Source: Escherichia phage JS10
Sequence record: EU863409
Strand: one strand, 5' to 3'
DNA length: 64,000 nucleotides
Each line of letters starts with the position of its first letter. Position 1 is the stretch's first letter. The notes under the pieces are model-generated. The model made no database searches and was not told the DNA's origin. It was given only the letters and a program-made list of their open reading frames with translations. Below, in pieces: positions 5,726-62,242 of the stretch. The translations under genes were made by a program, and so were the position numbers.

Positions 5726-5936
5726 TATAAGTTTCCTTCCAGAAGTCGGTGCCTTCAGCAGTGATTTCACGGAACACTGCATAGATAGGGTTTTTATCAC
5801 CTTGATTTTCGTATACATAAACCGACGATAAATGAGAAAACGTATCAGAATGTTCCTTTTGAACCACGATTAAATCAGGGTTGAACAGAACATCTTCAAA
5901 TTCTTCACGAGTCGAGTTCACAGTAACTTTAGCCAT
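5712..5936 (-). CDS. hypothetical protein
   Basis: 74-aa ORF; promoter-like element at 5955-5996 upstream. Confidence 0.45.
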   Translation of the reverse strand: MAKVTVNSTREEFEDVLFNPDLIVVQKEHSDTFSHLSSVYVYENQGDKNPIYAVFREITAEGTDFWKETYNDQI

Positions 5937-5954
5937 TTTATTTTCCTCTCATTT

Positions 5955-5996
5955 GTTGATAGGGTAATAGTATCACTACCCTACCGTATTGTATAC
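5955..5996 (-). promoter_or_regulatory. early-promoter cassette (variant -35)
   Basis: gttgatagggtaatagta...gtatac; minus strand gives GTATAC-N17-TACTAT. Confidence 0.45.
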
Positions 5997-17416: not shown

Positions 17417-17702
17417 CTGTCACCTCTTTAACAATATTTTTGTTATCGAAATTAGCATCACAGTACAGAACATAGTTATACTGCATAACACCGCTGGAAG
17501 CCAATTGGTCGGATACTTCTTTAACCATATCAGGACGGTCCCGTTTAGTGATATTCATGATATCAGCGTAAATCTGATGTTCAACTGATTCTTGGTCTGC
17601 AGTCATAGACCATTCACAAAGGTCTTTATCCAATCCAGCCGTAACTGGAGCTGTACCACATGATGCTACTGTAAGGATTGCTGCGATTAATAACTTTTTC
17701 AT
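17409..17702 (-). CDS. secreted/periplasmic protein, Spackle-like by size and position
   Basis: 97 aa with N-terminal signal peptide MKKLLIAAILTVASCG; T4 sp is about 97 aa in the 61-41 interval. Confidence 0.45.
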   Translation of the reverse strand: MKKLLIAAILTVASCGTAPVTAGLDKDLCEWSMTADQESVEHQIYADIMNITKRDRPDMVKEVSDQLASSGVMQYNYVLYCDANFDNKNIVKEVTGE

Positions 17703-17718
17703 TTTTAACTCCTCATTA

Positions 17719-17760
17719 GTTGATAGGTCTATAGTACCACTACCATAGACCGATGTAAAC
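17719..17760 (-). promoter_or_regulatory. early-promoter cassette
   Basis: gttgataggtctatagtacca...gtaaac. Confidence 0.6.
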
Positions 17761-18676: not shown

Positions 18677-18717
18677 GTTGATAGGTCTATAGTATCATGC
18701 CTACAGGAGAAGTAAAC
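18677..18717 (-). promoter_or_regulatory. early-promoter cassette
   Basis: minus strand GTTTAC-N17-TACTAT-AGACCTATCAACTTGGAGAAC-ATG. Confidence 0.6.
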
Positions 18718-46547: not shown

Positions 46548-47072
46548 TTATGCGAGAACCGTCTTTAAACGCTCTTCAAATTTCTGAAGCAGAGCTTGGC
46601 GTTCAGCTCGTTGTGATTTGTACTGCTCGATACGACCTGAAGTGAGGGCGTACTGTTCGTTTACTGATTCCCGCATGAATTCAGGAATCTCTTTACAAGC
46701 TTTGATTTCGTCAAACTTATCAATAACCGCTTGTTGTTCGGCAATCAAGTTATCAAAATAAGCGATATCTGATTTAACGTTTGCCAGGTCAGATTCGGTA
46801 GGCATTAAACGTTTATTACGCTCAGCTTGATAAGCTTGGTTGGTTTCACGACTCCAGTGAAGAGTACGTTTTTTGTTGGTGTTTTTATAGAGCTCTACAA
46901 TACCAACTGAATCGATGATAGCAATCCAGTTCCAACGGTTTTTGTAAATCTCTCCTCCAGATACGGTAATCTCATTACCACAAGCAACATCATTAAAGAA
47001 CTTGCTTTGTTTTTCAGATTTGAAATTACCATTGTTAAAATTAATCAGTGAAAAAATATCTTTAGCGTTCAT
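46548..47072 (-). CDS. hypothetical protein
   Basis: 174-aa ORF. Confidence 0.5.
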   Translation of the reverse strand: MNAKDIFSLINFNNGNFKSEKQSKFFNDVACGNEITVSGGEIYKNRWNWIAIIDSVGIVELYKNTNKKRTLHWSRETNQAYQAERNKRLMPTESDLANVKSDIAYFDNLIAEQQAVIDKFDEIKACKEIPEFMRESVNEQYALTSGRIEQYKSQRAERQALLQKFEERLKTVLA

Positions 47073-47086
47073 GATAACCTCCAGTA

Positions 47087-47127
47087 GTTGATAGGTCTAT
47101 AGTATCATGTCTAATGGAGATGTAAAC
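47087..47127 (-). promoter_or_regulatory. early-promoter cassette
   Basis: gttgataggtctatagtatcatg...gtaaac. Confidence 0.6.
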
Positions 47128-47129
47128 AA

Positions 47130-47471
47130 CTAATAGAAACTTTTTTCACCGGCTTGCCCACTAAACCAGGCGGATTGTGTGTTCTCTTTCCGTTGGTGTT
47201 TAATACGAATAAGGTATTCGTTCCTGATGGCGCAGAGTTCATCTCTGAAGTCGCCTGCCAACTTAACCTGCTTACGGTCTAGATTTATTAAGGCTTGGGT
47301 CTTCGCGGCCAAGCGCAACCTCTTGAAGTCTCCTCCTTCACAACCGGTTTTATAAACCTTCTCAGCGAATTTGTGTTTAGATTCATTATCATAGTCTTCA
47401 ATAGACTGTTTCATGGCATTAGAGTATTTCAACTCTGCTTTTACAAGGTCATAACTAAATTGTTCGAACAT
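47130..47471 (-). CDS. hypothetical protein
   Basis: 113-aa ORF. Confidence 0.5.
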   Translation of the reverse strand: MFEQFSYDLVKAELKYSNAMKQSIEDYDNESKHKFAEKVYKTGCEGGDFKRLRLAAKTQALINLDRKQVKLAGDFRDELCAIRNEYLIRIKHQRKENTQSAWFSGQAGEKSFY

Positions 47472-47481
47472 AATTTCACCT

Positions 47482-48462
47482 TTATTTCAGAAGGGTAACT
47501 TCGGCGATTTCGCTCCAGTCATTTTTATCGGTGGCAATGAAGTCCGCCAGATAAAGAGCTGTACGTAATGATACGTTACGAAGACGAGATACATTGGCCT
47601 TCATCCATGCTAGAGCTTGATAAGTCTCGGCATCAGTCAGACCTCGGTTTTGCATCATATCGGTGGACAGGATAACGTCTTCAACACGAACCATAATCTC
47701 TTCGTTCGAGTGAACTCCGAGGTCTAAGTAAACTGAACGAGATACTAAAGCCTGGAGGTGTGGAGCAAGTTTAGTGCCACGTTCTAATTCACGGTCAATA
47801 TCAACGTTGGTGATGAATACGATGGTGCCTTCATATTCGAATTCTTTATCGATATTTTTATCATCGAGATAAGAACTTGAAGTGCTCCAGCACACCTTAC
47901 GTTTCTCACCGGTATCCAATGCGGCTTTCAGAAGGTTCAGGATATCCATGTCAGAGAATACATCAACATCATCAATAAGAAGAACACTATTAGGGCCGCG
48001 GTTATTCCAAAGTTGCTCGTAAAGACCGATTCCACTAATCTTTCCGTTGATTGATTTATATTCGATAGTTTCATTTTCGTGGGCATTTTGTAATGCTTTA
48101 TCCAAAGAGTATGTTTTACCAATACCTGCGGCACCAGAGATGATAAGGGAACGAATTTTACCATCAATGATTCCGTTAGTCATCATGTTCATTACTTTAA
48201 AACGTTTGTTGATGCGATGTTTCATTTCTTCAGCAGATTCAGTAACCATTGCAGGAGCTTCAGCACCTTCCATTTCAACGTCACATTTGAACACCCATAC
48301 ACCACGTTCAACACCATCAATCTGTACAAATACCTTGCCATCACCGAGGTGAGCTTCAGATTCATGAATTTTATTAGGGAACCAGGTTTTACCTGAACTC
48401 ATGAACGTACCAGAGATTTCATTACCGCGATAGATACCTTTGTTGATTTTGATAGTTAACAT
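47482..48462 (-). CDS. AAA-type ATPase
   Basis: Walker A GAAGIGKT and Walker B VLLIDDVD; ATG at 48460-48462 with AAGGAG RBS (track start is an upstream GTG). Confidence 0.6.
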   Translation of the reverse strand: MLTIKINKGIYRGNEISGTFMSSGKTWFPNKIHESEAHLGDGKVFVQIDGVERGVWVFKCDVEMEGAEAPAMVTESAEEMKHRINKRFKVMNMMTNGIIDGKIRSLIISGAAGIGKTYSLDKALQNAHENETIEYKSINGKISGIGLYEQLWNNRGPNSVLLIDDVDVFSDMDILNLLKAALDTGEKRKVCWSTSSSYLDDKNIDKEFEYEGTIVFITNVDIDRELERGTKLAPHLQALVSRSVYLDLGVHSNEEIMVRVEDVILSTDMMQNRGLTDAETYQALAWMKANVSRLRNVSLRTALYLADFIATDKNDWSEIAEVTLLK

Positions 48463-48485
48463 TTTATTCTCCTTCACTCAGTAGA

Positions 48486-48526
48486 TTTGATAGGTCTATA
48501 ATAACATGTTTAAAGCAGATGTACAC
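48486..48526 (-). promoter_or_regulatory. early-promoter cassette, copy 1 of a duplicated pair
   Basis: gataggtctataataacatgtttaaagcagatgtacac; same 38-nt string recurs at 48797-48838. Confidence 0.5.
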
Positions 48527-48528
48527 AC

Positions 48529-48759
48529 TTATTTTGCAATAATTTCACAGAAGCCATCTTTATAGCGGGCCCATGTTTCACCATTTACTGTATAAAGAGC
48601 AGCTTTACGACCATTAGGCATAACAACTTGTTTACCTTTGTTTTTAGTTACAGCTTCAATAATTTCGTATTCTTCAGCACGATCAGCTTTAAAGGTATCT
48701 TCCAGAGCGATCAAGTTAGTAGTGTAAGAACCGTATTTGTAATTTTTGATAGCGTACAT
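48529..48759 (-). CDS. hypothetical protein
   Basis: 76-aa ORF flanked by two identical promoter cassettes. Confidence 0.5.
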   Translation of the reverse strand: MYAIKNYKYGSYTTNLIALEDTFKADRAEEYEIIEAVTKNKGKQVVMPNGRKAALYTVNGETWARYKDGFCEIIAK

Positions 48760-48796
48760 TTTTATATCTCCGTTTGGTTTAAGTTTTCAGCTCTTT

Positions 48797-48838
48797 AGCT
48801 GATAGGTCTATAATAACATGTTTAAAGCAGATGTACAC
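48797..48838 (-). promoter_or_regulatory. early-promoter cassette, copy 2
   Basis: identical core to 48486-48526. Confidence 0.5.
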
Positions 48839-48858
48839 TACTTTTTTGCACTAAACCC

Positions 48859-48882
48859 AAAAAAGGCCCGAAGGCCTTTTAT
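48859..48882 (-). terminator. UUCG-loop terminator
   Basis: aaaaaaggcccgaaggcctttt. Confidence 0.55.
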
Positions 48883-49892
48883 CATTTATAATACGAGTTA
48901 TGGTTTTCTAGGTAAACCTGCTCAACGAACTTGTCCCAGAACTTCATGTCCACCTTCGCAGGCATACCATTCTTAGCTGCCCAGATGGCATTGGTTTCGA
49001 CTTCATCAACTATAGCTTCGAGCTCAGCCTGTACATCTTTAAAAGCATGTAGCCCTTGTTTGATTTCAAGGATAAATGGTGCTGTTCGTAAAGGATATTG
49101 AAGGTCGCCGGTCATATAGATTTCCTTCAACTGATATCCAGCACGATAAGCATGGCTCAGAGCTTTCCAATCAATGCCTTCATTAGCTTCGGCCTTACGA
49201 GCACGTTCACCATATTCAGCATCAAGTTTATTCAGAGATTGCTTAAGCTCGATTAATGACAAAGTAGTTTGGTACTTACGTCCGAGGACAGTATAGAACG
49301 TTTGAGGACCTGTTTTCTCATGGTTATGAAATACCCATTCACAGAACTCGTTTTCAGGAAGTCGATGTTTGATATCTTCTACCTTAGTGCGACGTTGCTT
49401 AGTAGAACCATCTTCTTGATAATCAACCCACTGTTCAGGAATCTGGTTAACGATAGCCAGTACACCACGCAGAGCAGCCAGACGAGAACCCTTAACACCA
49501 TATTTAGAAGCTTGCTTACGGACGTACCCTAAATAGGCTTTCATGTTAGTTGTATAGAAACGCGAACGGTTATCTTGGATAAATTTCCATACATCAGGTA
49601 AATCAGATTTAACCACCATTTCGGGTGGAGTGTGGAGCATATCCAGAGCAACGGTTTCGCCATCAGCAGCCAGTTTAAAGAAATATTTCAGGCTGTAAAG
49701 CTCATGGTCAACATCATCTTTAGTGTTTTTGGAAGCAGTGTTATTCGTGTTCAGGTTGGTATGGTTCATTGCCGTACCTAACAGAATATCACGCGGATGT
49801 GGAACAAAGATTTCTTTAAAATCGACATCAGATTCCGGAGTACTTGTTCCATAAAGATGGCTACCGAAGTAGCCTTTCATAACTGTTCTCAT
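48882..49892 (-). CDS. nucleotidyltransferase-fold protein (Pol-beta-like)
   Basis: GYFGSHLYGTSTPESDVDFKEIF (hG[GS]...D-x-D); start placed at ATG 49890-49892 forming ATGA overlap with upstream gene. Confidence 0.5.
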   Translation of the reverse strand: MRTVMKGYFGSHLYGTSTPESDVDFKEIFVPHPRDILLGTAMNHTNLNTNNTASKNTKDDVDHELYSLKYFFKLAADGETVALDMLHTPPEMVVKSDLPDVWKFIQDNRSRFYTTNMKAYLGYVRKQASKYGVKGSRLAALRGVLAIVNQIPEQWVDYQEDGSTKQRRTKVEDIKHRLPENEFCEWVFHNHEKTGPQTFYTVLGRKYQTTLSLIELKQSLNKLDAEYGERARKAEANEGIDWKALSHAYRAGYQLKEIYMTGDLQYPLRTAPFILEIKQGLHAFKDVQAELEAIVDEVETNAIWAAKNGMPAKVDMKFWDKFVEQVYLENHNSYYK

Positions 49893-50341
49893 TCTTTGTT
49901 CTCGAAGTGAATTACAGGACACATCTTAGATTTACGAGCTTTAATGTATTGGACGACGATATTTTCTTTAGTTTCTCGGCCTTCACGCTCAGCTTGAATA
50001 CGTTGCCATTCCTTTTCTTCTCTACGTGCATCATACCACGCGTGTAAATTCATCGCACCTAATGCCAAACCAATGGATAGAGCAATAATAAGAGCTATTG
50101 CAATCAACCCTAAAACAAACCCTAGACTCAACAGAACAGGAGTACTTAATACAAAGAAATGCTCTAATACACCAGCTCCTGCAACAGTTAATCCAAAAAG
50201 CGTACTACCTGCAACAACAGCACAAGCAAAACAAGCCCAAACCATTTTCCAGAAATAAGCACACAAAGAGTGTGGTCGAGAATGACGGTCATAAAAACGG
50301 TCGTGTAATTTAACGTGCCAAGAGTTTGAATTGATAATCAT
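49889..50341 (-). CDS. membrane protein
   Basis: 150 aa with several hydrophobic helices. Confidence 0.5.
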   Translation of the reverse strand: MIINSNSWHVKLHDRFYDRHSRPHSLCAYFWKMVWACFACAVVAGSTLFGLTVAGAGVLEHFFVLSTPVLLSLGFVLGLIAIALIIALSIGLALGAMNLHAWYDARREEKEWQRIQAEREGRETKENIVVQYIKARKSKMCPVIHFENKE

Positions 50342-50351
50342 AATATTTTCC

Positions 50352-50912
50352 TTAAGGGTTCATAGTTGGGATAACAGAGTTCAGATAAGAGACTAAAACT
50401 TTTAGCTCGTCTTTAGTAAATACCACTTCATTTTCACCGTCGTGTCTTTGGGTCAAGGATAGCAAATCACGACCCTGGTGTTGATACACGGATAATTCGG
50501 TATCATAATCCAGTTCTTCTTCATCACCTTCAAATGTTTCACTAGAACGAATCACCGCATCTTGACCTGGAACTTTCCATTCAACTTCAGGCTTGCATTC
50601 TTCCTGGAACAGTTTAAAAATACATTTAAAGAAATTACTAGAATTCCTAATGCTTAGACATTCAGTATCAGTTTCGATATTAAATCCGTCTTCATTTTTA
50701 TAAATTTGGGCCCATACATCGTCGTTAATATCAAACGATGCTCTATGGCGTCCATCAAGATACCCATCTTTATCCAAAACCTTTAAATCATAAAGTGGTT
50801 TAATATCTTGGATAGTTAGTACGATTTTATCGTCTTCTTGTGAAAGCACAATTGCATTATCAACTACTTCAGCGGTCAGTTCACCAAACAATTCAGTTGT
50901 TTCAATAATCAT
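50352..50912 (-). CDS. hypothetical acidic protein
   Basis: 186-aa ORF. Confidence 0.5.
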   Translation of the reverse strand: MIIETTELFGELTAEVVDNAIVLSQEDDKIVLTIQDIKPLYDLKVLDKDGYLDGRHRASFDINDDVWAQIYKNEDGFNIETDTECLSIRNSSNFFKCIFKLFQEECKPEVEWKVPGQDAVIRSSETFEGDEEELDYDTELSVYQHQGRDLLSLTQRHDGENEVVFTKDELKVLVSYLNSVIPTMNP

Positions 50913-55556: not shown

Positions 55557-56015
55557 TTAAAGATAGATTACTTTCGTGCTGGTTTTACCTTCTAAACGTT
55601 TAGAGTTAACAAATGCCATACGACATTTTAATGAATACCCTTTATCAGGATGTTTACGATCTACGGTCATACCCAACCATAAGGTTTTATCGGTAATCTC
55701 GAGACGCAGTGGACGATACACTTTACCTGGGACAATTTCAGATTCTACGTCAGGAAGAGGCTCCTGGATTAAAAATTCATGGATTTCTTTAACATGATTG
55801 TGGAGCTTCTTGAACAAAGAGAAAACATATTTTTCGTCAATTTCACGTTGGATAGCACGGTCCAACAAGTGATTAGAGTACTTAATAAAGAAAGCTGGGA
55901 CACCGCTCTTAATGGCGGCTTTTTTGATGGACGCGTTAAGTTCACGAAATTCGGTTTCGAACTGACGACGTAATTTGTTGCGGCGGATGAATACTTCTGA
56001 ATTAATTTCTGACAT
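55557..56015 (-). CDS. regB: RegB endoribonuclease
   Basis: 152 aa; EVFIRRNKLRR-FE-EFR... and HLLDRAIQREID... blocks match T4 RegB. Confidence 0.85.
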   Translation of the reverse strand: MSEINSEVFIRRNKLRRQFETEFRELNASIKKAAIKSGVPAFFIKYSNHLLDRAIQREIDEKYVFSLFKKLHNHVKEIHEFLIQEPLPDVESEIVPGKVYRPLRLEITDKTLWLGMTVDRKHPDKGYSLKCRMAFVNSKRLEGKTSTKVIYL

Positions 56016-56031
56016 TTTGTAATCTCCTGTA

Positions 56032-56072
56032 GTTGATAGGTCTATAGTACCACGTCTACAGGAGATGTAAAC
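56032..56072 (-). promoter_or_regulatory. early-promoter cassette
   Basis: gttgataggtctatagtacca...gtaaac. Confidence 0.6.
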
Positions 56073-57898: not shown

Positions 57899-58303
57899 AG
57901 CCTTGCCATAGTGTTTGTACCAGGTAGGGCGTTGTGCAATTTTTTCGTCCAAACGGGCTTGTGAAATAGCGATAGAAGCTTCGTGAGGAACATAATCACC
58001 ACGGAATTCCTGAGGAATATCACTAATGTCCTGGACTGTAGTATCCTTGATATTAAAGCCACGTTTTAAACATTCGGCTATAAGCTCGATTTGACGCTTA
58101 CGTAAAAATTCAAGCTTATCATAAAAGAATGTAACGTGGCCTGTACCAAGGATAAAAGTAGGGCTGATTTTAAAATCACGAACACGTTTACCGTTAGCAA
58201 CATGCTTACGAACTGCACCGAAAACACGTGGTAATTCACGATATTCAGCCATTAAGTGTTGGTCAGCCAATTCAGATACTAAGGTAAGGTTGATACGAGT
58301 CAT
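57887..58303 (-). CDS. denV: endonuclease V (pyrimidine-dimer DNA glycosylase)
   Basis: 138 aa; essentially identical to T4 DenV ([34 protein letters not shown]...). Confidence 0.95.
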
Positions 58304-58318
58304 TTTTAATCTCCTGTA

Positions 58319-58359
58319 GTTGATAGGTCTATAGTATCATGCCTACAGGAGAAGTAAAC
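58319..58359 (-). promoter_or_regulatory. early-promoter cassette
   Basis: gttgataggtctatagtatcatg...gtaaac. Confidence 0.6.
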
Positions 58360-61963: not shown

Positions 61964-62188
61964 TTACTTTTTGTTGAAAAAGTACATTTTACCTTTAGGG
62001 GATAAGGATACACGAAGTGCGTTACCGATACCAACTGAACATTTAACCAGGTCAGCAGATTTCAATTCACCAAATGCTTGACGAAGGTCACCGTCACGAG
62101 TGTTAACCATCAGACATTTAGCACCAGCTGCACGAACTTCATTTAACATGTTGATTGCTTGGTTAGAAAGTTTCATTTTATTCTCCAT
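61964..62188 (-). CDS. hypothetical protein
   Basis: ATG at 62186-62188 or 62174-62176 (MENKMKLSN), downstream of the promoter cassette; track start 62254 lies upstream of that promoter. Confidence 0.45.
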   Translation of the reverse strand: MENKMKLSNQAINMLNEVRAAGAKCLMVNTRDGDLRQAFGELKSADLVKCSVGIGNALRVSLSPKGKMYFFNKK

Positions 62189-62202
62189 TTCACTCTGTTG
62201 TT

Positions 62203-62242
62203 TTGATAGGTCTATAGTATCACACCTATAGACCTTGTATAC
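62203..62242 (-). promoter_or_regulatory. early-promoter cassette (variant -35)
   Basis: ttgataggtctatagtatcac...gtatac. Confidence 0.5.

Follow-up and report, generated by a model that had tools for sequence, protein, structure and literature searches.

A variable slot for small genes, bounded by predicted early promoters, between nrdC.11 and nrdC.10 of a JS98-like phage

The locus and its repeats

The window analysed was a 64,000-nt stretch of the genome of Escherichia phage JS10 (EU863409), a JS98-like Dhakavirus (T4-like coliphage). In the interval between nrdC.11 and nrdC.10 a gene for a 76-aa protein is enclosed by an exact direct repeat of 39 nt, at 48488-48526 and 48800-48838 (start-to-start distance 312), both copies being on the minus strand, where they read GTGTACATCTGCTTTAAACATGTTATTATAGACCTATCA. 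An earlier note on this DNA had described a 38-nt core present twice; the repeat is real, with slightly shifted edges, and the single small ORF of the note, 48529..48759, was borne out as a minus-strand reading frame of 76 aa. A search of the window with the earlier 38-mer, allowing up to 3 mismatches, gave 2 matches, both of them the repeat copies, and 0 of 100 dinucleotide-preserving shuffles matched it. At a lower level (85% identity) the two copies remain alike over 66 nt, as far as the A-rich tract that precedes the -35 (TGCAAAAAAGTA in one, TGCAAAATAAGT in the other). The 27 nt around the ATGs of the 76-aa gene and nrdC.10 are alike at 21 of 27 positions.

The features of the locus, all on the minus strand, are:

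48882..49892, minus: nrdC.11, the upstream gene, about 336 aa, predicted nucleotidyltransferase (ORF listing; Pfam RlaP PF10127, E = 1.6e-10)
48855..48880, minus: terminator-like hairpin AAAAGGCCTTCGGGCCTTTT and T-run, directly 3' of nrdC.11 (terminator scan)
48839..48854, minus: linker and A-rich tract GGGTTTAGTGCAAAAAAGTA, 5' of the copy 1 -35 (sequence; kept in relatives)
48800..48838, minus: copy 1, putative own early promoter of the small gene (exact 39-mer; promoter scan; family alignment)
48760..48799, minus: leader of the small gene, GCTAAAGAGCTGAAAACTTAAACCAAACGGAGATATAAAA, with Shine-Dalgarno GGAG (sequence; kept in PEi20 and the Serratia phages)
48529..48759, minus: the 76-aa gene, phrog_33156 (ORF, conserved family, fold prediction)
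48488..48526, minus: copy 2, putative nrdC.10-proximal early promoter, 39/39 identical to copy 1 (exact 39-mer; promoter scan)
48463..48487, minus: nrdC.10 leader AATCTACTGAGTGAAGGAGAATAAA with Shine-Dalgarno (common to Dhakaviruses with or without the small gene)
47482..48462, minus: nrdC.10, the downstream gene, 326 aa from a conserved ATG at 48462, P-loop/AAA-like (phrog_1250, E = 3e-163)
47089..47127, minus: next predicted promoter of the same family, GTTTACATCTCCATTAGACATGATACTATAGACCTATCA, 33/39 identical to the pair, before nrdC.8 (third repeat copy; family alignment; promoter scan)

The upstream gene, annotated as nrdC.11/nucleotidyltransferase in JS98 and IME08, ends with a TGA at 48882-48884. 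The name nrdC.10 is likewise that annotated in JS98; the AAA-domain Pfam matches of this gene are weak and all fall under the curated cut-offs. The hairpin behind nrdC.11 was placed at 48861-48880 by the terminator scan, with an 8-bp stem (4 GC pairs), a 4-nt loop and a T tail, and the fold of 48850-48895 has -13.4 kcal/mol (z = -2.7). IME08 has an identical hairpin and linker, GGGTTTAGTG, and its linker/A-rich module is also found after gene 52; hairpins of the same form and variant sequence are present in IME341 and fDHCT2.

In copy 1 the -35, GTGTAC (48833-48838), is followed by a 17-nt spacer containing TGCTTTA (48823-48829), a TG-extended -10, TGtTATTAT (hexamer 48810-48815), and then AGACCTATCA. 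The same heptamer in the spacer of copy 2 is at 48511-48517. The A-rich tract of copy 2 takes in the last codons of the 76-aa gene (GCA AAA TAA) and, as the stop codon of this gene ends 2 nt 5' of the copy 2 -35, there is no upstream room for a stem-loop. No stem-loop was found at copy 2, the region from the -35 to the ATG giving -6.1 kcal/mol (z = +0.75).

The 76-aa ORF is a genuine gene: it is annotated elsewhere (in WG01, PSD9 and ABTNLsp5), it belongs to a conserved family and its fold is predicted with confidence (AF2 model, pLDDT 84). It starts with an ATG that has GGAG 8 nt upstream. The analysis flags it as a real gene where both JS98 records (GenBank and RefSeq) have no annotation. 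Its family consists of 13 clusters among 5.8 billion proteins, all from T4-like phages, and the family alignment has 13 invariant columns. No Pfam match and no match in a sequence search of the PDB were obtained, PHROGs gave only matches of unknown function, and a Foldseek search of the model against the PDB gave no match (best E = 0.73, TM at most 0.3). That the protein might be a paralog of the N-terminal domain of nrdC.10, by an old tandem duplication of promoter and gene start, was considered and rejected (hhalign probability 0.1%, E = 0.57).

The two repeats look like T4-type early promoters in the promoter scan and the family alignment, in keeping with their earlier description as promoter cassettes. 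Both copies fit TGTACA-16-TATTAT with an upstream TG in a scan whose background is high (15 promoter-like sites vs 11 expected in shuffles). About ten minus-strand family members in the window have the form GTTTAC-N17-TAYTAT-AGACCTATCA, each before a Shine-Dalgarno and an ATG, and the motif TGNTAYTATRGACCTATC occurs 10 times exactly and 15 times with up to 3 mismatches, always on the minus strand, vs 0.7 expected. Other members of the family typically match at 27-35 of 39 positions. A second pair, at 58321-58359 and 18679-18717, is also 39/39 identical and its members are 40 kb apart, so exact identity is not special to the gene-flanking pair. Some family members have internal stem-loops (z from -2.1 to -4.8); an RBS-masking hairpin of the kind seen in other members was not found in copies 1 and 2 (z = -0.2 and +0.75). 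Promoter and terminator activity are both predicted here from matches to consensus.

Middle promoters of T4 have a MotA box, TGCTTtA, with its centre near -30 and a TAnnnT -10 about 11-13 nt further downstream. The repeats were rejected as canonical MotA-dependent middle promoters, as just 7 nt separate TGCTTTA from TATTAT and there is no TAnnnT at the canonical distance.

Contents of the slot and age of the arrangement

Comparison with related genomes, the check proposed in the earlier note, showed presence, absence and replacement of the gene among close relatives. Among the top 40 related records, 7 phages have the 76-aa gene, about 11 have an empty slot, about 8 have an extra ORF after nrdC.11, 2 have an 84-aa gene and 2 have an opposite-strand gene for a tail-needle-knob-like protein. 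The slot thus has at least five alleles, which suggests that it is a recombination hotspot. Empty slots are found in IME08, Bp7, MX01, KIT01 and others; the 84-aa gene, which is unrelated, is found in IME341 and probably also in 04086 and E33; and fDHCT2 and MN04 have other cargo. Where the gene is present the intergenic distance is 419 nt, and where it is absent 108 nt; the difference of 311 nt is about one repeat period.

The 5' half of the empty-slot promoter, GTTTACAxCCTCGTAGAGCATG, is of the type found upstream of the 84-aa gene of IME341, and its 3' half, TTATTATgGACCTATCAAATCTACTGAG, is of the nrdC.10-proximal type. As it is a chimera of upstream-type and downstream-type halves, the breakpoint must be inside the promoter. 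Since this promoter differs in type at the -35 and spacer, the empty slots seen are not the deletion product of the present identical-copy pair, nor could the empty-slot promoter be converted to the present arrangement by a single crossover. The exact 39-mer is restricted to genomes with the 76-aa gene. The predicted deletion joint, GCAAAAAAGTA-[39-mer]-AATCTACTGAG, was absent from IMG/VR and the phage collection and the predicted circle/tandem joint, TTGCAAAATAAGT-GTGTACATCTGCTTTAAACATGTTATTATAGACCTATCA-GCTAAAGAGC, was absent from IMG/VR; this is weak negative evidence only but, as neither joint was found in the collections searched, exchange between copies 1 and 2 themselves is not directly documented. 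The nrdC.10-proximal -10 and leader, used as a query, gave no new alleles, IMG/VR returning isolate genomes only and metagenomes nothing.

One gene between direct repeats, in a slot that also takes different cargo, could be a dedicated mobile element of an integron-like or transposon-like kind, whose site-specific recombinase would act at the repeats. This is very improbable. There is no integrase, transposase or homing endonuclease among the neighbours (the flanking genes have the Pfam labels RlaP, AAA_14 and DUFs), the repeats do not stand out from a promoter family that is spread through the genome and the circle joint was not found in IMG/VR. Furthermore, the exact protein was found on 9 contigs (a look-up having added five uncultured contigs), in the same slot every time and at no other locus, which argues against a mobile element and against a recent insertion alike.

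The cassette is younger than its flanks. Leader and gene are 99.3-99.6% identical among carriers, vs 90-95% for nrdC.11 and 94.6-98.7% for nrdC.10 (Fisher p from 1e-6 to 8e-3 across carriers); in the comparison with WG01 the cassette has 2 mismatches in 271 nt vs 89 in 1207 nt for the flanks (Fisher p = 1e-6). The near-identical block runs from about 48950 to 48474, ending just beyond copy 2, and only this right edge is informative because the sequence at the left edge is kept in empty genomes too.

A cassette far more conserved than its flanks would agree with a recent insertion or tandem duplication of promoter and gene, by which identical copies were made and of which identity marks a young event in the lineage. 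So would the 39/39 identity of the copies, vs the 27-35/39 typical of the family, the confinement of the exact 39-mer to carriers of the gene and the many Dhakaviruses without it. More distant relatives, however, speak against this. Homologs of the 76-aa protein are found in the nrdC.11-nrdC.10 interval of four other T4-like lineages (EcS1; PEi20; CC31/KaAlpha/CkP1; Serratia 92A1/WSPA), and in three of the four (EcS1, PEi20 and the Serratia phages) the whole promoter-gene-promoter-nrdC.10 layout is present. In these phages (Kagamiyamavirus, Kanagawavirus, Karamvirus and the Serratia phages) the homologs have 39-54% amino-acid identity and nrdC.10 has 59-80%. A promoter and leader orthologous to those of copy 1 occur in PEi20, 92A1, WSPA, CC31, KaAlpha and CkP1. 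Even among carriers of the identical 76-aa protein, the downstream copy differs from the upstream one at 3 or more positions in 9 of 13.

Relatives with the same arrangement and diverged repeats, which the earlier note had named as the observation that would refute its reading and speak for an ancient origin, are thus found, and the identical repeats cannot be taken as the scar of an insertion. In favour of the recombinational origin that the note had proposed are the variable slot, the chimeric promoter and a cassette younger than its flanks, but the gene is not a recent arrival. The diverged repeats of relatives largely refute the recent-insertion reading, and we regard it as quite unlikely. 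In these genomes the insertion of a gene cannot be dated from identical repeats on either side of it, because such a pair can be ancient and repeatedly homogenised.

Likeness and divergence of the copies

The stretch over which the two copies are alike differs between lineages. In the window, JS98, WG01 and PSD9 they share -35 to +10. In EcS1 they share -35 to about +27, with lineage-specific states (GCTTCAAAC, AGCTxCATCGAAACAAAACA), and in Serratia 92A1 and WSPA the shared part takes in the -10, the leader, the Shine-Dalgarno and the first codons, the -35 and the spacer being different; the two copies of PEi20 are unlike. In most JS98-like carriers the changes in the downstream copy are transitions within TGCTTTA only, giving CATTTCA (with an intermediate, CATTTTA), and across those carriers the 231-nt gene has changed at 1-2 sites only. 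No donor for the CATTTCA spacer was found elsewhere in the carrier genomes.

Purifying selection alone explains part of the likeness, since the core (-35 to -10) of the nrdC.10-proximal promoter is 30/31 identical between this phage and EcS1, with unrelated leaders, and since the dispersed pair 40 kb apart is identical too. It could be supposed that strong purifying selection keeps the whole element constant, down to each base of the spacer, with TGCTTTA as a protein-binding site for instance, and that recombination has no role; the conservation across genera of (A/C)TGCTTTAA in the spacer of the gene's own promoter fits with this. Such constraint by itself is, however, an unlikely explanation: most carriers tolerate the CATTTCA spacer and the spacer of the empty-slot promoter is unrelated, the derived states shared within the EcS1 and Serratia genomes reach into the non-promoter leader and even the first codons, and the chimeric promoter of empty genomes has its breakpoint inside the element.

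The explanation that we favour, and think probable, is that of two promoters long present in tandem, whose likeness is maintained by selection and repeated conversion and which serve as a recombination substrate, in shuffling of the type described for PeSL (promoter-early stem-loop) cassettes. Both repeats would be T4-type early promoters, read by host sigma-70 RNA polymerase as infection starts. Copy 1, behind the nrdC.11 terminator hairpin, would drive the 76-aa gene and copy 2 would drive nrdC.10; as there is no terminator between the copies, nrdC.10 would be transcribed from both promoters. The identity of the copies in this genome would result from strong selection on the promoter elements and from repeated homogenisation, whether by gene conversion or by unequal exchange, through homologous recombination, which is very active in the phage. 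The short homologies may make the slot a hotspot, with breakpoints in or beside the promoters deleting the gene or swapping in other small genes, and the whole segment of about 475 nt may move between co-infecting Dhakaviruses. We infer the read-through into nrdC.10, the mechanism of conversion and the direction of each event of gain or loss.

More tentatively, the pair may be long-lived and under opposing pressures, independent conversions in at least three genera re-homogenising different stretches while most JS98-like downstream copies change only at TGCTTTA. This possibility, doubtful as it is, would imply either that selection acts on the homology of the repeats itself or that TGCTTTA is a functional protein-binding site. 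In the first case the break in the middle of the repeat, which leaves a longest exact run of 24 nt, would stabilise the gene against deletion. In the second, the heptamer, MotA-box-like and at a non-canonical distance, may set the timing of these early promoters.

Comparison with known cassette systems

PeSLs were described in RB49 and phi1 (Arbiol, Comeau, Kutateladze, Adamia and Krisch, 2010, PMC2839356). RB49 has ORFan192 between two PeSLs and phi1 has a single PeSL there, which is the same picture as the window vs IME08, and the crossovers there fell within the module, either 3' of the -10 and before the SD or in the loop, much like the breakpoint of the empty-slot promoter here. The same work demonstrated mini-circles by inverse PCR and gives the homology needed for T4 recombination as less than 50 bp. 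In RB49 the promoters come very close to the sigma-70 consensus (TTGACA/TATAAT) and the stems consist of a G-run and a C-run, whereas the promoters here are T4-type (GTTTAC or GTGTAC, then TAYTAT). Copy 2 here has no stem-loop, and mini-circles would be a prediction in the present case. The great age of the present pair, with copies that are non-identical in most carriers, is an aspect outside that paper.

For T4 and PST, a PeSL consensus of TTTACW-N17-TAYWAT was reported, with the stem-loop just upstream of the promoter, and the PeSLs adjoin insertions, deletions and replacements in hyperplastic regions; degraded or 'half' PeSLs missing one component were also described (Comeau, Arbiol and Krisch, 2014, PMC4122927). 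The consensus here is of the same type, in another genus (Dhakavirus) and at another locus (nrdC.10/nrdC.11), the JS98 group being outside that analysis. Both copies fit the early promoter consensus. The A/T-rich tract 5' of the -35, usually with an upstream stop codon, is present in copy 1 as GCAAAAAAGTA and in copy 2 as GCAAAATAAGT, the TAA stop of the 76-aa gene being part of it. Copy 1 has a stable stem-loop 5' of the -35, as in one of the PeSL subclasses; copy 2 has none and would count either as an early promoter by itself or as one of the 'half PeSLs' of PMC4122927. A repeated, conserved motif family among small accessory genes is also present, and close relatives differ by indels and replacements whose breakpoints fall within the element.

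Two other systems show a partial likeness. Lambdoid morons (Hendrix and colleagues; via PMC2839356) are also single accessory genes with their own promoter between conserved genes, but they are thought to have arrived through illegitimate recombination and their regulatory sequences are not a vehicle of mobility, whereas here promoter homology marks the breakpoints. Integrons likewise offer a slot for alternative single-gene cargos, with circular intermediates proposed, but they depend on an integrase and attC/attI sites. Here there is neither, each cassette has its own promoter and exchange would be by general homologous recombination; the marks of a site-specific system, namely a recombinase among the neighbouring genes and occurrence of the cassette at more than one locus, were not found.

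No prior description of the nrdC.11-nrdC.10 slot or of JS98 early promoters was found in the literature searched, whose scope did not include the original JS98 genome paper. Phages that are otherwise near-identical and have 39/39 repeats (JS98, WG01) vs 35/39 repeats with a longest exact run of 24 nt (EcWhh-1, UP19) are natural substrates for relating deletion frequency to homology length. The locus appears to be an ordinary local example of the PeSL cassettes already described, through which homologous recombination can remove, add or exchange the accessory genes of these phages, and it offers a well-sampled natural case, in a genus without an earlier description, of the shuffling of T4-like accessory genes via short promoter homologies.

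The repeat pair and its promoter family

The window is from a Dhakavirus, a T4-type phage resembling JS98, and positions 47000-50500 align over their full length with Escherichia phage JS98 at 98.0% identity. As all genes surrounding the repeat pair lie on the minus strand, the reverse complement of the repeat is the strand to read, giving the following order.

48882-48884, minus strand: stop codon of nrdC.11, a predicted nucleotidyltransferase (Pfam RlaP)
48855-48880, minus strand: hairpin AAAAGGCCTTCGGGCCTTTT with T-run, after nrdC.11
Between hairpin and copy 1, minus strand: linker and A-tract GGGTTTAGTGCAAAAAAGTA
48838 to 48800, minus strand: repeat copy 1
Between copy 1 and the 76-aa gene, minus strand: 40-nt leader of this gene, with GGAG
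48759 to 48529, minus strand: 76-aa gene
48526 to 48488, minus strand: repeat copy 2, 2 nt after the 76-aa gene
Between copy 2 and nrdC.10, minus strand: 25-nt leader of nrdC.10, with GGAG
ATG at 48462, minus strand: nrdC.10, with weak AAA-like matches that do not reach the Pfam cut-offs

The identical direct repeats around one small gene that the earlier note had described were confirmed: the exact repeat is 39 nt long (GTGTACATCTGCTTTAAACATGTTATTATAGACCTATCA) with a period of 312, and the 76-aa ORF between the copies is a real gene, annotated in WG01, PSD9, ABTNLsp5 and others. The 38-mer of the earlier note had no match in any of 100 shuffles of the window, even at three mismatches. Weaker similarity (66 nt at 85%) reaches the A-rich tract upstream of the repeat.

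In a mechanical list of ORFs nrdC.10 begins at GTG 48477 (331 aa, 47482-48477), which would overlap the leader of copy 2; the conserved start, so annotated in relatives and preceded by GGAG, is the ATG at 48462 (326 aa). The IME08 annotation of nrdC.10 (1068 nt) is also overlong at its 5' end and crosses the promoter. In both JS98 records (NC_010105.1 and EF469154.1) the 76-aa gene, at 49270-49497 (about 2033-2263 of the extracted JS98 locus, L001), is unannotated.

The 76-aa protein belongs to a small conserved family with the invariant core MPNG.KA...V..(E).WA...DG. In a set of 5.8 billion proteins this family makes up 13 clusters, all of them from T4-like phages. A Pfam search with the protein matched no family, and the PHROG families that it matched are all of unknown function. 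Its predicted fold is confident (pLDDT 84, pTM 0.68), the model being small and mostly beta, and no relative was found in the PDB by sequence or by fold.

Each copy consists of GTGTAC, a 17-nt spacer and TG-n-TATTAT, called as TGTACA-16-TATTAT with TG by a promoter scan. About ten minus-strand sites in the window have the same design, GTTTAC-N17-TACTAT-AGACCTATCAAC, each 20-45 nt ahead of a Shine-Dalgarno sequence and ATG. The 18-nt family motif gave 10 exact and 15 near matches in the window against 0.7 expected, and no match on its plus strand. The early-promoter consensus of T4/PST promoter-early stem-loop (PeSL) cassettes is TTTACW-N17-TAYWAT (PMC4122927), and both copies have this T4-group early-promoter design, their activity being predicted from consensus matches. 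The hairpin ahead of copy 1 (-13.4 kcal/mol, z = -2.7) was called by the scan and is a predicted terminator.

Usual members of the family have 27-35 of 39 positions in common and copies 1 and 2 all 39; the derived states GTGTAC, TATTAT and spacer CTGCTTTAA are present in these two and in no other copy in the window. A second 39/39 pair, GTTTACTTCTCCTGTAGGCATGATACTATAGACCTATCA, lies at 58321-58359 and 18679-18717 (minus strand), 40 kb apart, and could reflect dispersed promoter-promoter conversion or extreme constraint. Exact identity alone is therefore no evidence for recent local duplication.

Inverted repeats within the promoter are found in many members of the family (minus strand). Those at about 62186-62242, 17700-17759 and 5934-5995 join the spacer to the -10/+1 region, e.g. 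GGTCTATAG...CTATAGACC; those at 58301-58359, 56013-56072 and 47070-47127 join the spacer CTCCTGTAG to the Shine-Dalgarno region CTACAGGAG. As read-through RNA they folded with z values of -2.1 to -4.8, the promoter-started transcript being unstructured. Pairing of spacer and Shine-Dalgarno would mask the ribosome-binding site in read-through transcripts and in no others. The ribosome-binding sites of the T4 genes e and soc are hidden in read-through transcripts. Stem-loops internal to the promoter, such as those of these family members, define subclasses of PeSL (PMC2839356).

A second locus of the composite module, outside the window, was seen in IME08, upstream of motA and between gene 52 and orf245 (1160-1250 of the extracted locus, L014). 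It has a variant of the hairpin, then the sequence TTTTTTGGGTTTAGTG, an A-tract and a promoter that belongs to the same subtype (GTATACATCTGCTTTAAACGTGTTATTATAGACCTATCA), followed by the leader found after the promoter at window 62204-62242. From this mix of parts, hairpin, promoter core and leader appear to have been reassorted among loci.

The nrdC.11-nrdC.10 slot among relatives

The 40 best-matching phage records and individually read loci gave at least five states of the nrdC.11-nrdC.10 junction, referred to here as the slot.

States of the slot among the relatives compared
76-aa gene: JS98, UP19, Ec2-ASingh, EcWhh-1, ABTNLsp5, WG01, PSD9
Empty: IME08, KIT01, Bp7, MX01, NC-G and others
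Extra small ORF behind nrdC.11: fDHCT2, QL01, CLB_P2 and others
Extra ORF and unrelated 84-aa gene: IME341 (read); 04086, E33 (inferred from match span or similarity)
Opposite-strand 251-aa tail-needle-knob gene: MN04 (read); C6 (inferred from match span)

The 251-aa gene (2066-2821 of the MN04 locus, L004, on its plus strand) encodes collagen-like repeats ahead of an Sf6-type tail-needle-knob domain (PF16532, E = 5e-32). ORF-099 of PEi20 (1597-2370 of its locus, L011) is the same cargo in the same place, so that it occurs in two genera. It is an unexpected cargo for the early region of a myovirus.

nrdC.11 and nrdC.10 are 419 nt apart when the 76-aa gene is present and 108 nt apart when it is absent; the 311 nt by which these values differ is about one repeat period. 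Empty genomes have a single promoter, GTTTACACCCTCGTAGAGCATG|TTATTATGGACCTATCAAATCTACTGAG, whose left half is that of the promoter before the 84-aa gene of IME341 and whose right half is that of the nrdC.10-proximal promoter. Such a structure would be expected if a crossover had taken place within the promoter, at the extended -10's TG, and had either deleted an IME341-type cassette or, in reverse, inserted a circle. The empty-slot promoter is not the product expected from deletion of the 76-aa cassette of the window, as the left half is GTGTAC...CTGCTTTAA in both copies there. In keeping with this, neither the predicted precise-deletion joint (in IMG/VR or the phage collection) nor the reciprocal circle or tandem joint (in IMG/VR) was found. 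Searching more widely with the nrdC.10-proximal -10 and leader gave no new alleles in IMG/VR or metagenomes.

Leader and gene together (271 nt) differ from the window at only 1-2 positions in the carriers (99.3-99.6% identity), against 90-95% for the adjacent part of nrdC.11 and 94.6-98.7% for nrdC.10 (one-sided Fisher p 1e-6 for WG01 and PSD9, 3e-5 for ABTNLsp5, 8e-3 for Ec2-ASingh). The near-identical block runs from ~48950 to ~48474, ending ~15 nt beyond copy 2; as its left edge falls in a stretch also conserved in empty genomes, only the right edge is informative. The cassette is younger than its flanks, a pattern that fits recent lateral spread among Dhakavirus backbones by recombination.

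Age and homogenisation of the promoter pair

A tblastn search with the 76-aa protein gave matches in 33 phage records. Among the loci read, all homologs outside Dhakavirus lie in the nrdC.11-nrdC.10 interval: immediately ahead of nrdC.10 in EcS1 (Kagamiyamavirus, 54% identity), PEi20 (Kanagawavirus, 51%) and the Serratia phages 92A1 and WSPA (39-40%), and one to three small genes from it in the Karamviruses CC31, KaAlpha and CkP1. As the neighbours are more conserved outside Dhakavirus (nrdC.10 59-80%, nrdC.11 69%), the 76-aa gene is an old, faster-evolving resident. The exact protein was found in nine public contigs, always in the slot. Each homolog directly preceding nrdC.10 is bracketed by two predicted early promoters, and in the Karamvirus interval the small genes mostly have their own promoter of the same design (all in CkP1, not all in KaAlpha and CC31).

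The repeats were compared in 13 carriers of the identical 76-aa protein. The copies are identical in only four (the window, JS98, WG01 and PSD9); in nine (ABTNLsp5, EcWhh-1, UP19, Ec2-ASingh and five uncultured contigs) the arrangement is the same and the downstream copy has a changed spacer, with 3-5 differing positions where both copies can be read. The upstream copy of Ec2-ASingh, an unverified record, also has one substitution and a 2-nt insertion. Recombination through promoter modules, as the earlier note proposed, survives these comparisons, but the scar of a recent insertion does not, given the old layout and the diverged repeats.

The spacer changes across carriers are transitions. 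Four (48517, 48516, 48515 and 48512) lie inside the heptamer TGCTTTA and give CATTTCA. An intermediate, CATTTTA, occurs in one contig, and a further transition just outside the heptamer in Ec2-ASingh. The variant spacer was not found at other loci of these carrier genomes, which therefore offer no conversion donor. Both copies contain TGCTTTA in their spacers (48823-48829 and 48511-48517, minus strand), and (A/C)TGCTTTAA is kept in the spacer of the 76-aa gene's promoter across four genera. The heptamer is the core of the T4 MotA box, yet only 7 nt from the -10, a wrong spacing that rules out a canonical MotA middle promoter. This transitions-only divergence, confined to a conserved MotA-box-like heptamer apart from the one Ec2-ASingh change, is one of two new points.

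In the window, JS98, WG01 and PSD9 the two promoters share -35 to +10, the leaders differing beyond. In EcS1 they share -35 to about +27, and EcS1-specific states (GCTTCAAAC; AGCT(G/A)CATCGAAACAAAACA) are present in both copies. In 92A1 and WSPA the pair shares the -10, whole leader, Shine-Dalgarno and first codons (TTACTATAGACCTATCAGCTAAATGGCTTAA...CCTGGAGTA.TAAAATGAAAACT), and the -35 and spacer differ. PEi20 has unlike copies, the upstream with a JS98-type and the downstream with an EcS1-type leader. Since lineage-specific states are shared within a genome and the tract varies by lineage, the homogenised tracts are the signature of independent conversion or unequal exchange and not of one duplication. 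Evidence that one ancient promoter pair was homogenised repeatedly and independently is the other new point.

Around the two start codons, 48736-48762 and 48439-48465 are identical at 21 of 27 nt, a likeness reached by only 5 of 4560 gene-start pairs in the window. It may be what is left of a conversion tract that reached the first codons, as in the Serratia phages. The 76-aa protein starts MYAIKNYK and nrdC.10 MLTIKINK; the rest of the proteins is unrelated, and the 76-aa gene was therefore rejected as a duplicated 5' end of nrdC.10.

Mechanism and comparison with PeSL systems

The most likely overall mechanism, and one that we regard as probable, combines promoter function with promoter-module recombination. 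Both copies would act as early promoters, insulated from nrdC.11 transcription by the hairpin; the 76-aa gene would be transcribed from copy 1 and nrdC.10, because nothing terminates between the copies, from both. On comparative evidence, promoter modules are shown to be points at which the region has been cut and rejoined in evolution. To judge from the work on PeSLs, the exchanges were probably made by general homologous recombination of the phage, between copies or with co-infecting relatives, and would result in deletion, replacement, lateral spread or conversion. Mini-circles of RB49/phi1 were seen by inverse PCR, and the homology requirement of T4 is <50 bp (PMC2839356). An integron-like element was rejected, as the neighbouring genes include no recombinase and the cassette was found at no other locus.

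A literature search gave no description of the slot in the collection searched; in PMC2839356 and PMC4122927 JS98 comes up only in connection with PeSL-like sequences at the g43 locus, the JS98 group being otherwise untreated. The slot is an instance of the phenomenon already described in these two papers (Arbiol et al. 2010; Comeau et al. 2014). Copy 1 and its hairpin have all sequence components of a PeSL (subclass 'stem-loop upstream of the -35'), whereas copy 2 lacks the stem-loop on folding (z = +0.75) and is better described as a bare early promoter or 'half' PeSL. The exact analogue is ORFan192 of RB49, which lies between two PeSLs where phi1 has a single PeSL (PMC2839356).
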